NCBI GenBank assembly: GCA_043746355.1
Contig: JAYTRC010000055.1
Span: 34,879-98,878 of the forward strand
Direction of reading: 5' to 3'
Length of the DNA: 64,000 nucleotides
From: Lacisediminihabitans sp.
GTDB lineage: Bacteria; Actinomycetota; Actinomycetes; Actinomycetales; Microbacteriaceae
The notes beneath the pieces are model-generated. The model saw only the letters and a list, made by a program, of their open reading frames with translations, did not search any database and was not told the DNA's origin. Shown piece by piece: positions 45,026 through 61,907 of the stretch (the stretch's first letter is position 1; every line of letters starts with the position of its first letter). A program made the translations under genes and the position numbers.

Positions 45026-45961
45026 ATGACCACCCCGGCCGCTCCCAAGGTGGTGCACGCGCGGGCACCCGGCAAGATCAATGTCTTCCTGAAGGTCGGC
45101 GCGCTGCTGGACGACGGCTACCACGACGTGGCCACTGCCTATCAGGCCGTATCGCTGTATGAAGACGTGCGCGCCTCAGCGGCCGATGATTTCTCGGTCG
45201 AGTTCAGTGGATCCGTCGACACCTCTGCGCTCGCTACCGACGGCTCGAATCTCGCCATCAAGGCCGCGACAATGCTTGCGCATCGTGCTGGCTACCGAAA
45301 AGGCGTGCGGCTCGAGATCGAGAAGAATGTACCCATCGCCGGCGGAATGGGCGGCGGGTCGGCGGATGCCGCGGCGACCCTTTTGGCCTGCGACGCGCTC
45401 TGGGGCACCAACCTCACCCGTGAGGAGCTGCTCGAGCTGGCCACGCAGCTCGGCTCCGATGTCCCCTTCGCGTTCACGGGAGGCACCGCCATCGGCACCG
45501 GCCGCGGTGACCAGCTCAGCCCCGCCCTTGCCAAGGGCACGTTCCAGTGGGTGCTCGCCCTGGCCGATTTCGGCATGAGCACCCCTGAGGTCTACAGCGA
45601 GCTCGACCGTCATCGCGATCGTCACTCGCAAGACATCTTTCCGGCCGCAGTGCAGCCCCAGGTCGATTCAGCGGTGCTGCAGGCGCTCCGGGCCGGCGAC
45701 CCGCACATGCTCGCCGAGGTACTGCACAACGACCTGCAGGCTCCTGCGCTGCACCTTGAGCCCGAACTGGGCGCTGTGATCGAATTGGGCGAAGAGAATG
45801 GTGCGCTTTCGGGGATGGTGTCTGGGTCTGGCCCGACCATCGCGTTTCTCGCCCCAGACCTCGATGGAGCACTCGAGCTGCAGATCGCGCTCAGTGCGGC
45901 ACGGCTCACCGTGGTGCGCGCAACCGGTCCGGTGCATGGCGCGCGCATACTCAGTGAGTGA
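45026..45961 (+). CDS. ispE: 4-diphosphocytidyl-2-C-methyl-D-erythritol kinase
   Basis: [39 protein letters not shown]. Confidence 0.96.
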
Positions 45962-46026: not shown

Positions 46027-47616
46027 GTGAACTTCCGTACCCAGGGCTGGCTGGCCGCCCTCACCGGTCTTATCTCGGCGGTAGTCGTTCTCGGTAGTGC
46101 CGAGGCCTGCGCTCTCTTCACGGGCAATGCAGGAAGCCCACTGTTCGCGGTCGGATCCCTCGTCATCGACCTCGCCCCGCCCGGTGCAAAAGACTTCATG
46201 ATCGCGCTCTTCGGCACCGGGGATAAGGCCGCATTGCTGACCCTCCTCGGCATCCTCATCGTCGCCGGTTCGTCCGTCGCCGGCTGGGTCGAGCTTCGAA
46301 AGGCGCCATGGGGCGTCGTGATTTTCGGTGTAGCCAGCCTCGTCGCTATCGTCGCTGTGCTCACGCGGGCTGACGCCAGTGGTCTGGATGGTGTGCCGAC
46401 AGTGATCGGGGCGGTTGCGGGCGTCATCGTGCTGAGGTCGGGCATCCGGCGGCTCAGGCTCTGGCGGGCTGCGGCCGAACGGAACGCACACGTCGCCGAC
46501 CAGGGTCGGGTGCCGAGTCGTTTCGTGCAGGGCACGCCGGTTGAGCGCCGCAGCTTTCTCACCATGTCGATCGTCGCAGGCGCACTCGCGCTCGTCGCCG
46601 GCACCGGTGCCCGAATCGTCAACGCGGGCGCGACCGCGGTCACCGAGGTGCGCAAGAAGATCACCCTGCCGGCGGCGGCGACCCCGGCTCCTGCGCTGGC
46701 AACCGGTACCTCGCTCGACGTGCCTGGCATCTCGGCGGTCGTCACCCCCAACTCGACGTTCTATCGCATCGACACCGCGCTGCAGGTCCCCTCCGTCGAC
46801 TCAGACACCTGGAAGCTCACGGTAACCGGCGAGGTCGAGAATGAAATTGAGATCGACTTCAAGGAGCTGCTGAAGAAGCCGCTCGTCGAGCACTACGCGA
46901 CGCTCACCTGCGTGTCGAACGACGTCGGCGGCGATCTGATCGGCAATGCCCTCTGGCTCGGCTGGCCGATTCGCGACCTGCTCGCTCTTGCTCAACCGAA
47001 AGCCGGCGCCGACATGGTGCTCTCGACGAGCATCGACGGTTTCACCGCCGGAACACCCCTCTCGGTGCTGCAGGACGTGAACACCGAGTCGCTTCTCGCG
47101 GTTGGGATGAACGGCACACCGCTCCCGCTGGAACACGGGTACCCGGTGCGCATGGTCGTCCCCGGGCTCTACGGCTACGTCTCCGCGACGAAGTGGGTCG
47201 TGTCGCTCGAGGTGACTCGATTCTCGAAAGCGCAGGGTTACTGGACTCCGCGCGGGTGGGATGCCCTCGGCCCGGCCAAGTTAGAGTCGCGCATCGACAC
47301 CCCGCGTGCGGGCTCGGCAATCCCTTCGGCAACAGCGACCGTGCCGATTGCCGGTGTCGCCTGGTGCCAGCACGTCGGTGTGAGCAGGGTCGAGGTGCAG
47401 ATCGATAAGGGTGAGTGGCAGACCGCGACCCTCGCCGACTCGATCTCGCCAGACACCTGGGTGCAGTGGGTCTACCAGTGGAAGCCGACCAAGGGCAGCC
47501 ACCAGCTACAGGTTCGCGCGACGGACGCGAAAGGCAATCGCCAGCGGCAGGCCTACGTGTCGCCAGCCCCGAACGGTGCAGAGGGCTGGCACCGAATCAA
47601 CGTGGTGGTCAACTAG
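46027..47616 (+). CDS. Polytopic membrane-anchored molybdopterin oxidoreductase (sulfite oxidase family)
   Basis: N-terminal TM bundle, internal RRSFL motif, FYRIDTAL, TLTCVSN Mo-Cys, MNGTPLPLEHGYPVR, SATKWV, Ig-like C-terminus. Confidence 0.9.
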   Translation: MNFRTQGWLAALTGLISAVVVLGSAEACALFTGNAGSPLFAVGSLVIDLAPPGAKDFMIALFGTGDKAALLTLLGILIVAGSSVAGWVELRKAPWGVVIFGVASLVAIVAVLTRADASGLDGVPTVIGAVAGVIVLRSGIRRLRLWRAAAERNAHVADQGRVPSRFVQGTPVERRSFLTMSIVAGALALVAGTGARIVNAGATAVTEVRKKITLPAAATPAPALATGTSLDVPGISAVVTPNSTFYRIDTALQVPSVDSDTWKLTVTGEVENEIEIDFKELLKKPLVEHYATLTCVSNDVGGDLIGNALWLGWPIRDLLALAQPKAGADMVLSTSIDGFTAGTPLSVLQDVNTESLLAVGMNGTPLPLEHGYPVRMVVPGLYGYVSATKWVVSLEVTRFSKAQGYWTPRGWDALGPAKLESRIDTPRAGSAIPSATATVPIAGVAWCQHVGVSRVEVQIDKGEWQTATLADSISPDTWVQWVYQWKPTKGSHQLQVRATDAKGNRQRQAYVSPAPNGAEGWHRINVVVN

Positions 47617-47647
47617 CTCGACCCGCGGGTTAGCTCGACCCGTGGGT
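47614..47647. repeat. 17-bp tandem direct repeat after the oxidoreductase stop
   Basis: tagctcgacccgcgggt followed by tagctcgacccgtgggt. Confidence 0.7.
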
Positions 47648-47690: not shown

Positions 47691-47749
47691 ATCTGGTGCG
47701 CAGTTGTGGTGACTTCACGGCTGCGCATGTCACCACAACTGCGCAGTAG
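47691..47749. repeat. REP-like palindrome copy 1 (17-bp arms, 15-nt spacer)
   Basis: atctgg-TGCGCAGTTGTGGTGAC-N15-GTCACCACAACTGCGCA-gtag; perfect arms at 47697-713 and 47729-745. Confidence 0.9.
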
Positions 47750-47804
47750 TTCGGCCTGTGAGCACATTTCCCGCTCCGCACGCCTGGTGGGGCATTCTGA
47801 ATCG

Positions 47805-48752
47805 ATGAAACCAGAGCCCACCAGACGCTCAGCACTGCCCGCGGGGCTAGACCCTCGCGGATTTTCGACTCAGGATGCTGCGGAGGCGGGCATGTCGCGG
47901 TCGCGCGGCCGGGCATCCGACCTCGAGGCGCCCTGGCGAGGCGTGCGCGCAGTGGTCTCATCGAGCTCCACAACGCTCGCGAAGTGCGCGGCATACAGCG
48001 CAAGGATGCCCCCGGGGCAGTTCTTCAGTCACGCCACCGCGGCAATTATTTATGGGATTCCGCTGCCGTACCGGGTCGAGCAGGATGCCCGGCTGCACGT
48101 TGCGACGATGTTTGGTGACCAGCCCCCTCGCGCCCGCGGCGTTGTCGGGCATCGATTGAGAGGGAGCCACCCCATCGCCAGGCGACAGAACCTGCCGGTG
48201 TGCACAGCGGAGCAGGCCTGGCTGCAACTCGCCACGCAACTGCCGGTGGACGACCTGATCGTCGCTGGTGACTTCCTGCTCAGGCGCAAACGGCCGATTT
48301 CGACACTGGAGGCCCTCGCGCTAGCGATCGAGTCGGGAGGGTCCCGCGCCGGGATCACGCGAGCGAGGGCCGCCATCCGAGACGTACGCGCGGGCACGGA
48401 CTCGCCGATGGAGTCGCGCCTGCGCATCCTTCTCATCCGCTCGGGTCTGCCTGAGCCGATCATCGGATTCACGGTGACGAATCGCGACGGCGACTTCGTG
48501 GGCACGCCCGATCTCGCCTACGTCAGGGAGCGGATCGCGATCGAGTACCAGGGGCAGATCCACCAGTCCAATCCGCAGGTCTTCGCGGAAGACGTCGAGC
48601 GGCGCGAGTTGTTCGAAGCTGCCGGCTGGCACGTCATCCTCGTGTTCAAGGATCACCTGAACAAACGCCCGCACTGGGTGGTGACGCGGGTGTCGGGGGC
48701 ACTGAGCGATCGCGCCAGCCTCCAGCCCATCGGGCAATCTGGTGCGCAGTAG
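47805..48752 (+). CDS. AbiEi-like/DUF559 (Vsr-like PD-(D/E)xK) protein
   Basis: FSHATAA..GIPLP, DSPMESRLR..GLPEP, PDLAY..IAIEYQG..H, AGWHVI; the stop codon lies inside palindrome copy 2. Confidence 0.8.
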   Translation: MKPEPTRRSALPAGLDPRGFSTQDAAEAGMSRSRGRASDLEAPWRGVRAVVSSSSTTLAKCAAYSARMPPGQFFSHATAAIIYGIPLPYRVEQDARLHVATMFGDQPPRARGVVGHRLRGSHPIARRQNLPVCTAEQAWLQLATQLPVDDLIVAGDFLLRRKRPISTLEALALAIESGGSRAGITRARAAIRDVRAGTDSPMESRLRILLIRSGLPEPIIGFTVTNRDGDFVGTPDLAYVRERIAIEYQGQIHQSNPQVFAEDVERRELFEAAGWHVILVFKDHLNKRPHWVVTRVSGALSDRASLQPIGQSGAQ

Positions 48753-48795
48753 TGGTGACCTGTATGCACGGCACGTCACCACGACTGCGCTGTAG
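48737..48795. repeat. REP-like palindrome copy 2
   Basis: atctgg-TGCGCAGTAGTGGTGAC-N15-GTCACCACGACTGCGCT-gtag; same orientation and flanks as copy 1. Confidence 0.9.
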
Positions 48796-48851: not shown

Positions 48852-50666
48852 ATGGCACATCTGCTCGGGGGCGAATCCCTTCATCTCGAATACCCGACCC
48901 GCGTCATCTTCGACAAAGTGACGATCGGCATCGATGAGGGCGACCGCATCGGGGTCGTCGGCCGCAACGGCGACGGTAAGTCCACGTTGCTGCGCCTGCT
49001 CAGCGGTCGCATCGAGCCCGACTCGGGCCGCGTCACGCGACGCAATGGTGTGACGCTCGGGATGCTCGACCAGGCCGATCTTCTGCCAGAAGACCTGCTC
49101 GTCAGCGACGCGATAGTCGATGGCCGCGACGAGCACGAGTGGGCGGGCGATGCCCGCATCCGCGACGTCATCGACGGACTCCTGCTCGACGTTCCGTGGG
49201 ACGCCACGATCGGCGAACTCTCCGGTGGCCAGCGGCGCAGGGTCGCCCTCGCCAAACTGCTGGTCGGCGACTGGGATGTCATCTTCCTCGACGAGCCCAC
49301 CAACCACCTCGATGTCGAGGGAATCGCCTGGCTCGCCGGGCACCTCAAGAAGCGCTGGTCCGCGAACTCCGGCGGGCTGGTGGTCGTCACTCACGATCGC
49401 TGGTTTCTCGACGAGGTCTCCACGGATACCTGGGAGGTGCACGACCAGCTCATCGAGCCGTTCGAGGGCGGCTATGCCGCGTACATCCTGCAGCGGGTCG
49501 AGCGCGACACGATGGCAGCGACGATGGAGTCGAAGCGGCAGAATCTCGCCCGTAAAGAGCTGGCCTGGCTGCGTCGTGGTGCGCCAGCCAGAAGCACGAA
49601 GCCGAAGTTCAGGATGGATGCTGCATACGAGCTCATCGCGAACGAACCCCCACCACGCGACACCGTCGCCCTCAGCCAGCTCGCCACCGCCCGGCTCGGT
49701 AAAGATGTCGTCGACCTTCTGGATGTCGGGGTCTCCTACGGCGATCGCGAAATTCTCACAGACATCGAGTGGCGCATCGCGCCGGGCGAGCGCACCGGCA
49801 TTCTCGGGGTCAACGGTGCCGGCAAGTCGACCCTGCTGAGCCTGGTCGCCGGCACGCAGCTGCCGACCGTCGGGCGCGTCAAGCGGGGCAAGACCATCCG
49901 CGTGGCCATACTCAGCCAGCAGCTGGGTGAGCTCGCCGACATCCTCGACGACCGGGTCATGGATGTCATCGCTCGCCAGAAGAGCTCATACGTAAGCGGC
50001 GGCAAGGAACTCACCCCCGGGCAGCTGCTCGAGCGGATGGGATTCCTGAGCGCCCAGCTCAGCACTCCGGTCAAAGATCTCAGCGGCGGGCAGAAGCGCA
50101 GGCTTCAACTGTTGCTCATTCTGCTCGGCGAACCGAACGTGCTCATTCTCGATGAGCCGACGAACGATCTCGATACCGACATCCTCGCTGCGATTGAAGA
50201 CCTGCTCGATTCCTGGCCCGGCACCCTCATCGTGGTGAGCCACGACCGTTACCTGCTCGAGCGGGTCACAGACAACCAGTACGGCATTCTCGACAAGAAG
50301 ATGCGACACCTGCCCGGCGGGGTCGACCAGTATCTCGAACTGCGCAAGAAACAGGGCACCCGGGGCCAGACGGTTACGGAGTCGCACCGCGAGGAGAAGT
50401 CGTCGGTGTCGACGATCAACTCGAAGGGCCACACGAAGCTGACCGGCGCTGACCTGCGCAATTCCGAGAAAGAGCTCGGGTCGGTCAGCCGCAAGCTCGA
50501 GAAGGTCACGACGAATATCGCCTCGGTGCATGACAGGTTCGCCGCTCACGACCAGTCTGATTTCACCGGTCTCGCCGCGCTGCAGAAAGAACTCTCAACG
50601 CTCGAGACGTCGATGGAAGAACTCGAACTGCGCTGGCTCGAGCTGAGCGAGCTGCTCGGCGACTAG
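48852..50666 (+). CDS. ABC-F family ATPase (Uup-like)
   Basis: Two NBDs (GRNGDGKS, GVNGAGKS; LSGGQRRR, LSGGQKRR; DEPTNHLD, DEPTNDLD), no TMD, coiled-coil C-terminus ending RWLELSE. Confidence 0.92.
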   Translation: MAHLLGGESLHLEYPTRVIFDKVTIGIDEGDRIGVVGRNGDGKSTLLRLLSGRIEPDSGRVTRRNGVTLGMLDQADLLPEDLLVSDAIVDGRDEHEWAGDARIRDVIDGLLLDVPWDATIGELSGGQRRRVALAKLLVGDWDVIFLDEPTNHLDVEGIAWLAGHLKKRWSANSGGLVVVTHDRWFLDEVSTDTWEVHDQLIEPFEGGYAAYILQRVERDTMAATMESKRQNLARKELAWLRRGAPARSTKPKFRMDAAYELIANEPPPRDTVALSQLATARLGKDVVDLLDVGVSYGDREILTDIEWRIAPGERTGILGVNGAGKSTLLSLVAGTQLPTVGRVKRGKTIRVAILSQQLGELADILDDRVMDVIARQKSSYVSGGKELTPGQLLERMGFLSAQLSTPVKDLSGGQKRRLQLLLILLGEPNVLILDEPTNDLDTDILAAIEDLLDSWPGTLIVVSHDRYLLERVTDNQYGILDKKMRHLPGGVDQYLELRKKQGTRGQTVTESHREEKSSVSTINSKGHTKLTGADLRNSEKELGSVSRKLEKVTTNIASVHDRFAAHDQSDFTGLAALQKELSTLETSMEELELRWLELSELLGD

Positions 50667-61099: not shown

Positions 61100-61687
61100 C
61101 TGGATACTCTTCAGTGGCTCGTAGTCGGGCTCGGTAACCCCGGGCCCGACTACGCGAGCAACCGGCACAATGTCGGCCAAATGGTGCTCGCAGATCTCGC
61201 CGACCGCCTAGGCGCGAAGTTCAAGAGTCAGAAAAACAACGCCATGGTTGCCGAGGGGCGCACCGGCATCGAGGGTCCGCGCCTGATCCTGGCGAAACCG
61301 AACAGTTTCATGAACCTATCGGGTGGCCCGGTCTCGTCGCTGATGAAGTACTACAGGCTTGAGCCGTCGCAGTTGATTGTTGTTCATGACGAGCTCGACA
61401 TCCCGTTCGACCGCATTCGATTGAAACTCGGAGGCGGTGCGGGTGGTCACAACGGCATCAAAGACATTGCGGCTGCCCTCGGTTCGCCGGACTTCTTCCG
61501 GGTTCGAGTCGGTATCGGTCGCCCTCCCGGTCGACAATCGGCAGCCGACTTCGTGTTGCGCGATTTCGCGTCGACCGAGCGGGCGATGCTTCCTTCCCTG
61601 TTGGCGGATGCCGCTGACGCTGTCGAGCAGATCGCTCGCGAGGGACTGACCGCTGCCCAGTTGCGCTTTCACACGGACCCCTCCTAA
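61100..61687 (+). CDS. pth: Peptidyl-tRNA hydrolase, apparent CTG start
   Basis: WLVVGLGNPG..NRHNVG, KPNSFMNLSG, HDELD, GGHNGIK, RVRVGIGRP. The only start-like in-frame codon between the rplY stop and the conserved N-terminus is CTG 61100. Confidence 0.92.
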   Translation: MDTLQWLVVGLGNPGPDYASNRHNVGQMVLADLADRLGAKFKSQKNNAMVAEGRTGIEGPRLILAKPNSFMNLSGGPVSSLMKYYRLEPSQLIVVHDELDIPFDRIRLKLGGGAGGHNGIKDIAAALGSPDFFRVRVGIGRPPGRQSAADFVLRDFASTERAMLPSLLADAADAVEQIAREGLTAAQLRFHTDPS

Positions 61688-61714
61688 CAGCTCTGCCGCG
61701 CATCCGGTGTCGGG

Positions 61715-61763
61715 TGTGCAGTAGTGGTGACTTAGGGGACTGCTAACTCACCACTACTGCGCT
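61715..61763. repeat. REP-like palindrome copy 3 (solo)
   Basis: TGTGCAGTAGTGGTGAC-N15-CTCACCACTACTGCGCT; same arms and spacer length as copies 1 and 2. Confidence 0.85.
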
Positions 61764-61907
61764 CTCGTTGCTGCATCATCCACTCGGCCGGTGAACTTTT
61801 GCGATCGACCTTGTTGAGACCCCACGAGGCGGTTGCGTCGCCGATGAGATTTCGACGAGCTCGATCCGCCTTCGGCACTGTCAGCGCCCACGCGTAGACT
61901 CGATCAG

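Follow-up and report, generated by a model that had tools for sequence, protein, structure and literature searches.

A predicted nuclease gene in the actinobacterium Lacisediminihabitans sp. (Microbacteriaceae) is closely bracketed by two copies of a long palindrome, and related genes, in the same genome as well as at homologous loci of public genomes, are often bracketed in the same way by palindromes of their own. The window, by which we mean the whole stretch of DNA analysed, comprises 64,000 nucleotides (nt) of assembly GCA_043746355.1 (contig JAYTRC010000055.1, positions 34,879 to 98,878 of the forward strand), and the palindrome-gene-palindrome unit lies at positions 47691-48795 within it. 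Judging from sequence comparison, we consider it about an even chance (probability roughly 0.5) that this unit is a member of a repeat-plus-enzyme system of Microbacteriaceae and some other actinobacteria that resembles the partnership of hairpin-forming doublets of repetitive extragenic palindromes (REP; the doublets, REPINs) with REP-associated tyrosine transposases (RAYTs), with an unrelated enzyme in place of the transposase. To our knowledge, REP-type repeats with a dedicated enzyme have so far been tied to HUH/RAYT transposases, mostly in Proteobacteria.

The two palindromes lie on the forward strand at 47691-47749 and 48737-48795, are 59 nt long each and share the same orientation at an offset of 1046 nt, with conserved arms, unrelated spacers and the stop codon of the gene inside the second copy, all of which agrees with a preliminary description of this DNA that had been made from its letters alone. 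Each copy consists of ATCTGG, a 17-nt arm, a 15-nt loop, the complementary 17-nt arm and GTAG (ATCTGG-TGCGCAGTTGTGGTGAC-N15-GTCACCACAACTGCGCA-GTAG for copy 1). Overall identity between the copies is 80%, with 1-2 mismatched positions in the arms and only about 6 of 15 matching in the loops, and gene conversion as the sole cause of the agreement is unlikely in the window, given that the loops are unrelated. The arm pattern is matched six times in the window against 0.35 matches expected, a number that none of 100 shuffles gave, and both copies are predicted to fold into stable hairpins (-24 and -18 kcal/mol; z = -6.3 and -3.8). Copy 1 forms the upstream boundary of the unit and ends 55 nt before the ATG at 47805, while copy 2 forms the downstream boundary, contains the stop codon (TAG, 48750-48752) within its left arm and encodes the last four residues of the open reading frame (ORF) along with that stop. 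A further, lone copy of the same palindrome family, hereafter T, is located on the forward strand at 61709-61767, 22 nt past the stop of the ORF 61181-61687, and is not present at the corresponding site of congeners. Comparison of the palindromes with Rfam gave nothing above noise, and a consensus promoter and a T-run terminator were looked for at the hairpins and not found; with neither an Rfam match nor a T-run, we rejected a known RNA family or an intrinsic terminator as their identity.

The bracketed ORF (47805-48752, forward strand, 315 residues) comprises an AbiEi-like N-terminal and middle part (residues 1-195) and a Vsr/EDxHD-like PD-(D/E)XK domain (residues ~196-305), a combination that had been suspected in the preliminary description and is supported at the level of the fold (Rv2827c and I-Bth0305I, respectively), with Pfam scores below threshold. 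The database protein for this gene has 286 residues and starts at Met30; because residues ahead of Met30 are kept in relatives (P12, F20, A25 and G29), we take the long ORF as real, so that the start would be the ATG at 47805 or earlier and the database form is probably cut short. The window protein scores 17.4 bits against the Pfam family DUF559 (PF04480; cut-off 20.6) and 24.2 bits against MTES_1575 (PF18741; cut-off 38.2), thus below both gathering thresholds; the latter family is matched by 14 of 15 relatives, with E values down to 5e-7. Pfam AbiEi gave no match at E <=0.1, and a family-profile sequence search of solved structures found nothing. The AlphaFold model of the full protein has a predicted local distance difference test (pLDDT) score of 87, and its C-terminal domain is best matched by the catalytic domain of I-Bth0305I (3r3p; template modelling (TM) score 0.79 over ~105 residues, probability 1.0), with weaker matches to TnsA. 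Residues 1-197, modelled separately (pLDDT 93), are best matched by Rv2827c (1zel; E 6e-6, TM 0.57-0.60). On these models, the C-terminal domain is predicted to have a Vsr/EDxHD-like PD-(D/E)XK nuclease fold, for which the invariant D236 and D263 and the nearly invariant E247 and H253 form an acidic and histidine constellation, and the N-terminal part is predicted to have an AbiEi-type fold. Neither Pfam matches nor folds pointed to an HUH/Y1 domain in the protein, and no gene for an AbiEii nucleotidyltransferase partner lies next to it, its neighbours being genes for a molybdopterin oxidoreductase and an ABC-F ATPase. The identity as a known defence system was rejected, as PADLOC gave no match and the NCBIfam matches to ZorE and Vsr were at noise level only.

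Within the genome of the window (G000; 2.9 Mb in 100 contigs, labelled C), about 86 palindromes have arms of at least 15 nt. The T family numbers five full copies and one half genome-wide, and its placement is not random, as the preliminary description had anticipated: two of the five full copies flank the gene and three are lone. Five related genes are present, four of which have their own, different flanking palindrome pair. The paralogue on C1, 38% identical to the window protein, is bracketed in the same geometry by a different palindrome, CGAGTCGTCGAARTTGGCTC, whose family (S) comprises two flanking copies, three lone copies and two halves. A search between other palindrome pairs about 1.1 kb apart yielded two further homologues. 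One of them (C88:6142-7099, ~319 residues, motif PD...EFDG..K, hhalign probability of 92% against the family) is a distant homologue within the unit C88:6003-7150, which is bracketed by famC (CGCGGCGGGGATATCGCCTCGCGGAC), the most abundant palindrome family of this genome, with 12 or more full lone copies, in addition to halves and many pieces at contig ends; famC probably breaks the assembly. The other distant homologue (C11:20335-21275, 313 residues, hhalign 86%) sits in the unit C11:20169-21340 between two copies of famD (GTTCCATYTCGTACCGAT), with its stop codon at the edge of the downstream copy, and four full lone famD copies are found elsewhere in the genome. Four of the five multi-copy families of long palindromes in this genome have their own gene of this superfamily, while the paralogues themselves are 34-38% identical or less.

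The same arrangement was found in a survey of 80 loci from public genomes (L029-L108), of which 75 had complete flanks. Defining a cognate flanking repeat as a direct repeat of at least 20 nt common to the upstream and the downstream flank, 41 of the 75 loci have one, in contrast to 1 of 225 mismatched locus pairs that served as control. The median upstream copy lies 123 nt before the start of the match and the median downstream copy 39 nt after the stop, with a median period of 1068 nt, and the arm sequences vary between gene lineages. When one genome was taken for each genus, 55 of the 81 had between 1 and 11 diverged copies of the gene, mostly intact, whereas phages gave no homologue matches and plasmids only three, all on Arthrobacter megaplasmids. 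At the locus of a close relative of the window's genome (L030), the copies at 1390-1445 and 2403-2458 are identical over 56 nt, loop included, and have a left arm of the G000 type and a right arm of the type seen in the congener G005, which points to recent conversion between these copies and to a tolerance of imperfect pairing. Between two Agromyces species (L074 and L079), the unit is in opposite orientation, the flanks are 83-91% identical and the palindrome type differs. DUF559 appears as enriched among predicted inversion targets in a table row of a published study (PMC9881135), and the Agromyces inversion fits this listing, which is also the nearest item in the searched literature that mentions DUF559, in which the present layout is not described.

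A search of 31 congeners for T-type arms with at most one mismatch found T-type palindromes in only three genomes (G000, G037 and G005), which are exactly those whose gene at the corresponding site carries the T type, apart from one single-arm match at one mismatch in each of G002 and G014. The lone T-type copies of the three genomes occupy non-orthologous sites, where comparison of the genomes with one another shows them as indels. Likewise, arms of a further type, famE, are matched 15-19 times in each of the four genomes whose gene is flanked by famE (G001, G008, G009 and G013) and not at all in 22 others. Lone copies are located in extragenic DNA, often just past stop codons, although the ORF context, assigned by GC content at third codon positions, is too crude to tell a terminator from a promoter position. 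Angustibacter has two flanking and about ten lone copies whose central stems differ yet stay complementary: over the 12 copies, 84.8% of cells are paired as compared to 38-50% with the partner slid, ten pairs are altered on both sides, and none of 500 shuffles reaches the observed score. Compensatory evolution thus keeps the arms complementary.

The unit lies between genes for a GHMP kinase (ispE-like, 45026-45961) and a molybdopterin oxidoreductase (46027-47616) on one side and an ABC-F gene (uup-like, 48852-50666) on the other, in keeping with the ispE..uup neighbourhood named in the preliminary description; a 17-nt tandem duplication (TAGCTCGACCCGYGGGT x2, 47614-47647) begins at the oxidoreductase stop codon, just ahead of the unit. 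In about 30 of the 80 surveyed loci, from many genera, the gene is directly upstream of uup and always co-oriented with it, and the C1 and C99 paralogues each have a syntenic group of their own. The notion that the unit is a recent insertion interrupting a housekeeping region was therefore not borne out; rather, as its synteny shows, the gene is an old, vertically inherited resident beside uup in many genera and not a recent jumper. In E. coli, Uup has been associated with template switching as well as with precise excision at repeats (PMC7145654), and a functional tie between this gene lineage and the neighbouring uup is possible. Protein identity drops to 56% where the N-terminus of Uup is 97% identical. 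For those pairs the synonymous divergence (dS) of uup is already 0.8-0.9 and the ratio of nonsynonymous to synonymous divergence (dN/dS) of the gene is 0.11-0.37, which indicates that the gene is under purifying selection, more relaxed than that on uup, and has not necessarily been replaced. Given this dS and dN/dS values around 0.2-0.3, horizontal replacement is not needed as a cause of the low protein identity.

Among genomes of the same genus, the site upstream of uup holds a homologue in nine and lacks it in eight. The flanking genes are separated by about 45 nt in the gene-less G006 and by 144 nt in G007, neither of which has a palindrome, and the gene-less G003, G004, G010, G011 and G018 are also without one. 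Seven of the eight gene-less sites thus lack a palindrome, the exception being G002, which retains a decayed lone palindrome of another type. The indel between G001 and G011 is 1146 nt long, starting ~13 nt before copy 1 and ending ~18 nt after copy 2. Units at the uup site carry at least five palindrome types, which show a deep relationship (…AGTTGTKGYGAC…) and have diverged through changes on both arms. The comparison of empty and filled sites that the preliminary description had proposed therefore has a mixed outcome, in that gene-less sites lack the palindromes, with G002 set apart, and no target-site duplication or duplicated flank was seen between filled and empty congener sites. Insertion into a pre-existing palindrome was rejected, as the empty sites (G006, G007, G011 and others) have none. 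In addition, lone copies do not seem to be the footprints of deleted units, as the sites of the lone copies at 61709 in the window and at C81:32372 are occupied by other DNA without a family gene in relatives; only the decayed copy of G002 at the uup site fits such an origin.

Based on these data, we propose a system of two parts. The first would be a resident, low-copy and vertically inherited gene for a predicted DNA-binding nuclease, with an AbiEi-type winged-helix part and a Vsr/EDxHD-type PD-(D/E)XK domain; the second would be a cognate, hairpin-forming palindrome of REPIN type, in which a free spacer separates the inverted arms and of which two copies bracket the gene while others lie alone in extragenic DNA. 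The winged-helix part may read the arms of its own palindrome, either as a hairpin stem or as duplex half-sites, which would explain why all four arms of the two copies vary jointly with the protein lineage, and the upstream copy probably also serves autoregulation, in the manner of AbiEi at its own inverted repeats. The nuclease domain might nick or cut at or near the folded palindrome, whereupon repair or template switching could occasionally, and at a very low rate, place a palindrome copy at a new extragenic site, while the gene itself would not jump. Of these steps, the reading of its own palindrome by the protein is the one that we infer with the best support, and nicking, with the spreading that it would bring about, is the weakest. 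Going beyond this unit, genes combining an AbiEi winged helix with a Vsr-like nuclease, together with their palindromes, might constitute an unrecognised class of vertically inherited repeat-replicators in Actinobacteria, convergent with REPIN-RAYT systems, in which the nuclease reads and nicks the stem of its own hairpin and so drives rare copying of the palindrome to new extragenic sites, with protein and repeat co-evolving into many mutually specific lineages per genome; we put this forward tentatively, as a generalisation that is rather more likely to fail than to hold.

Several observations weigh against this proposal. No clear cognate pair was seen at the 20-nt threshold in 34 of the 75 loci, and the expectation that each paralogue has its own cognate palindrome family, which stood for four of the five genes in G000 and for the 41 loci elsewhere, fell short for the C99 paralogue, which has an upstream palindrome only. 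The three genomes with T-type palindromes are also the closest relatives, so that phylogeny is a confounder of the association of repeat with gene. Lone copies are few and unevenly distributed (none in Rathayibacter, which has no copies beyond the flanking pair, about ten in Angustibacter and from three to more than 12 in G000), far below typical REPIN populations. Moreover, G000 harbours six well-preserved palindromes of the famE type (TCGTTGRG-TTGGTAGTTGTTGCGG...; C11:38806, C45:104859, C48:104187, C59:13664, C81:32372 and C88:44609) without having a famE-flanked gene. These orphans are perhaps relics of an earlier specificity, and at the site of one of them G013 has a copy too; by their existence they indicate that lone copies can be retained in the absence of a cognate gene, for instance in the role of terminators, and weaken a strict dependence of the repeat on the gene. 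A hydrolytic PD-(D/E)XK nuclease alone also lacks the ability of an HUH enzyme both to cut and to rejoin DNA. Finally, the support comes from comparison of sequences and from predicted folds, and binding or cutting of the repeat is a proposal.

The main rival to the REPIN-like reading is that the gene encodes an autoregulated, stand-alone nuclease with a cellular task, for example in repair or defence. The upstream palindrome would then be an operator bound by the AbiEi-type domain, the downstream copy would close a repression loop or act as a terminator or insulator ahead of uup, and the lone copies would be independent terminator-like hairpins or extra binding sites. AbiEi proteins bind inverted repeats at their own promoter, and the predicted N-terminal fold is that of Rv2827c, a member of the AbiEi family. 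In the stretch from copy 1 to the gene, at 47757-47762 on the forward strand, the window has TGTGAG, a one-base variant of a TGTGGA box that is present in 51 of 81 units but in only 6 of 241 control windows, that precedes the start codon of related units by 47-48 nt (spacing judged by eye at ~12 loci) and that is common to lineages with mutually unrelated palindromes. This box is probably a promoter or operator element, and the position of copy 1 just upstream of it would suit an operator. An old syntenic resident under purifying selection, orphan famE palindromes that persist without their gene and extragenic lone copies just after stop codons are likewise what such a nuclease would lead one to expect. 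It leaves unexplained, however, why lone copies of a type occur only together with a gene of that type, why they are placed at non-orthologous sites and why, of the five multi-copy families of long palindromes in G000, four have a gene of this superfamily to themselves; the lack of a PADLOC match and of a T-run after the hairpins also speaks against it. Overall, we regard this explanation as rather unlikely, though it is the strongest alternative to the proposed repeat-plus-enzyme system.

Less likely than either of these, and in our estimation improbable, is that the palindrome-gene-palindrome cassette is mobile as a whole, either by homing into an empty target, such as the loop of a lone palindrome, through repair, or by means of hairpin ends that act like those of the insertion sequences (IS) IS200/IS605. 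Such mobility would be compatible with a nuclease domain closest to that of a homing endonuclease (3r3p), with a site at which congeners either have or lack the gene, the boundaries falling at the palindromes, with the opposite orientation of the two Agromyces units of different palindrome type between the same flanks, with the lone palindrome at the gene-less uup site of G002 and with a synonymous divergence of the gene that reaches 3.5 times that of uup in some pairs. The presence/absence pattern, however, fits loss as well as gain, no genome holds near-identical copies (the low identity of the G000 paralogues being a case in point), and each lineage keeps its chromosomal position across genera, with none in phages and almost none on plasmids. 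Furthermore, a palindrome to be targeted is missing from seven of the eight gene-less sites, recombinational repair would have only short arms (17-30 nt) to work with, and at none of the four lone-copy sites examined do relatives have a gene of the family. The last explanation, that hairpin repeats simply pile up in long intergenic regions and a gene happens to sit between two of them, could appeal to the ~86 palindromes of G000, many of which are ordinary terminator-like hairpins, but is excluded by the enrichment of the arm pattern in the window, the cognate pairs, present at 41 of 75 loci but in only 1 of 225 controls, the conserved positions relative to start and stop, and the four gene lineages of one genome that each have their own pair.

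What makes the proposed repeat-plus-enzyme system of interest is that a nuclease unrelated to RAYTs shows a RAYT-like ecology, namely its own flanking repeat, one repeat family per gene lineage, vertical inheritance and small dispersed populations. If the protein does act on the repeat, gene-plus-repeat partnerships would have evolved at least twice, many 'hypothetical' DUF559/AbiEi-like proteins of actinobacteria would gain a function, and an explanation would be at hand for how long extragenic palindromes arose in high-GC Gram-positive genomes. In that case, the mutually specific pairs of protein and palindrome would also represent a natural library of sequence-specific readers of hairpins or duplexes.

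Among known systems, the unit shares with IS200/IS605 elements the similar, same-orientation hairpins near both ends and empty sites without hairpins; it differs in having no HUH transposase, no multiple identical copies and lineages at fixed chromosomal sites, and in the lack of an HUH TnpA and of near-identical copies we rejected this identity. With I-Bth0305I (3r3p) and the DUF559/MTES_1575 families it has in common the predicted C-terminal fold, the D236/E247/H253/D263 constellation and weak Pfam matches, although its Pfam scores are below the curated cut-offs, and the gene differs in being chromosomal and intergenic, with no intron, intein or phage as its host, in its fusion to an AbiEi-like part and in its bracketing by palindromes. 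Since it is intergenic, is without phage matches and is stable in position across genera, we do not count it as a homing endonuclease gene. The likeness to the AbiEi antitoxins of type IV toxin-antitoxin systems (Rv2827c, 1zel) extends to the predicted fold of the N-terminal 197 residues and to an inverted repeat upstream of the own gene; here, however, there is no AbiEii partner gene and no Pfam AbiEi match, a C-terminal nuclease domain is present, and the inverted repeat recurs at the 3' end of the gene as well as at scattered sites elsewhere in the genome. REPIN-RAYT systems, for which a low-copy, vertically inherited gene in a fixed extragenic space, an own flanking repeat and several specific systems per genome have been described (10.1101/2021.07.10.451892), differ from the present one in their enzyme, as an AbiEi-like winged helix with a Vsr/EDxHD-like hydrolytic nuclease and no HUH/Y1 domain is predicted here; in their repeat populations, which are tens to hundreds as compared to 0 to ~20; and in their setting, the host being an actinobacterium here and the system being known from its sequence, with a predicted activity. 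They nevertheless offer the closest parallel. In both cases, an enzyme gene of low copy number has its own palindromic repeat on either side, built of two inverted arms with a less conserved spacer in between; a genome contains several such systems, each with its own repeat type, and lone copies lie in extragenic DNA; and the gene, inherited vertically, keeps to the same extragenic space and occurs in no phages and on hardly any plasmids.

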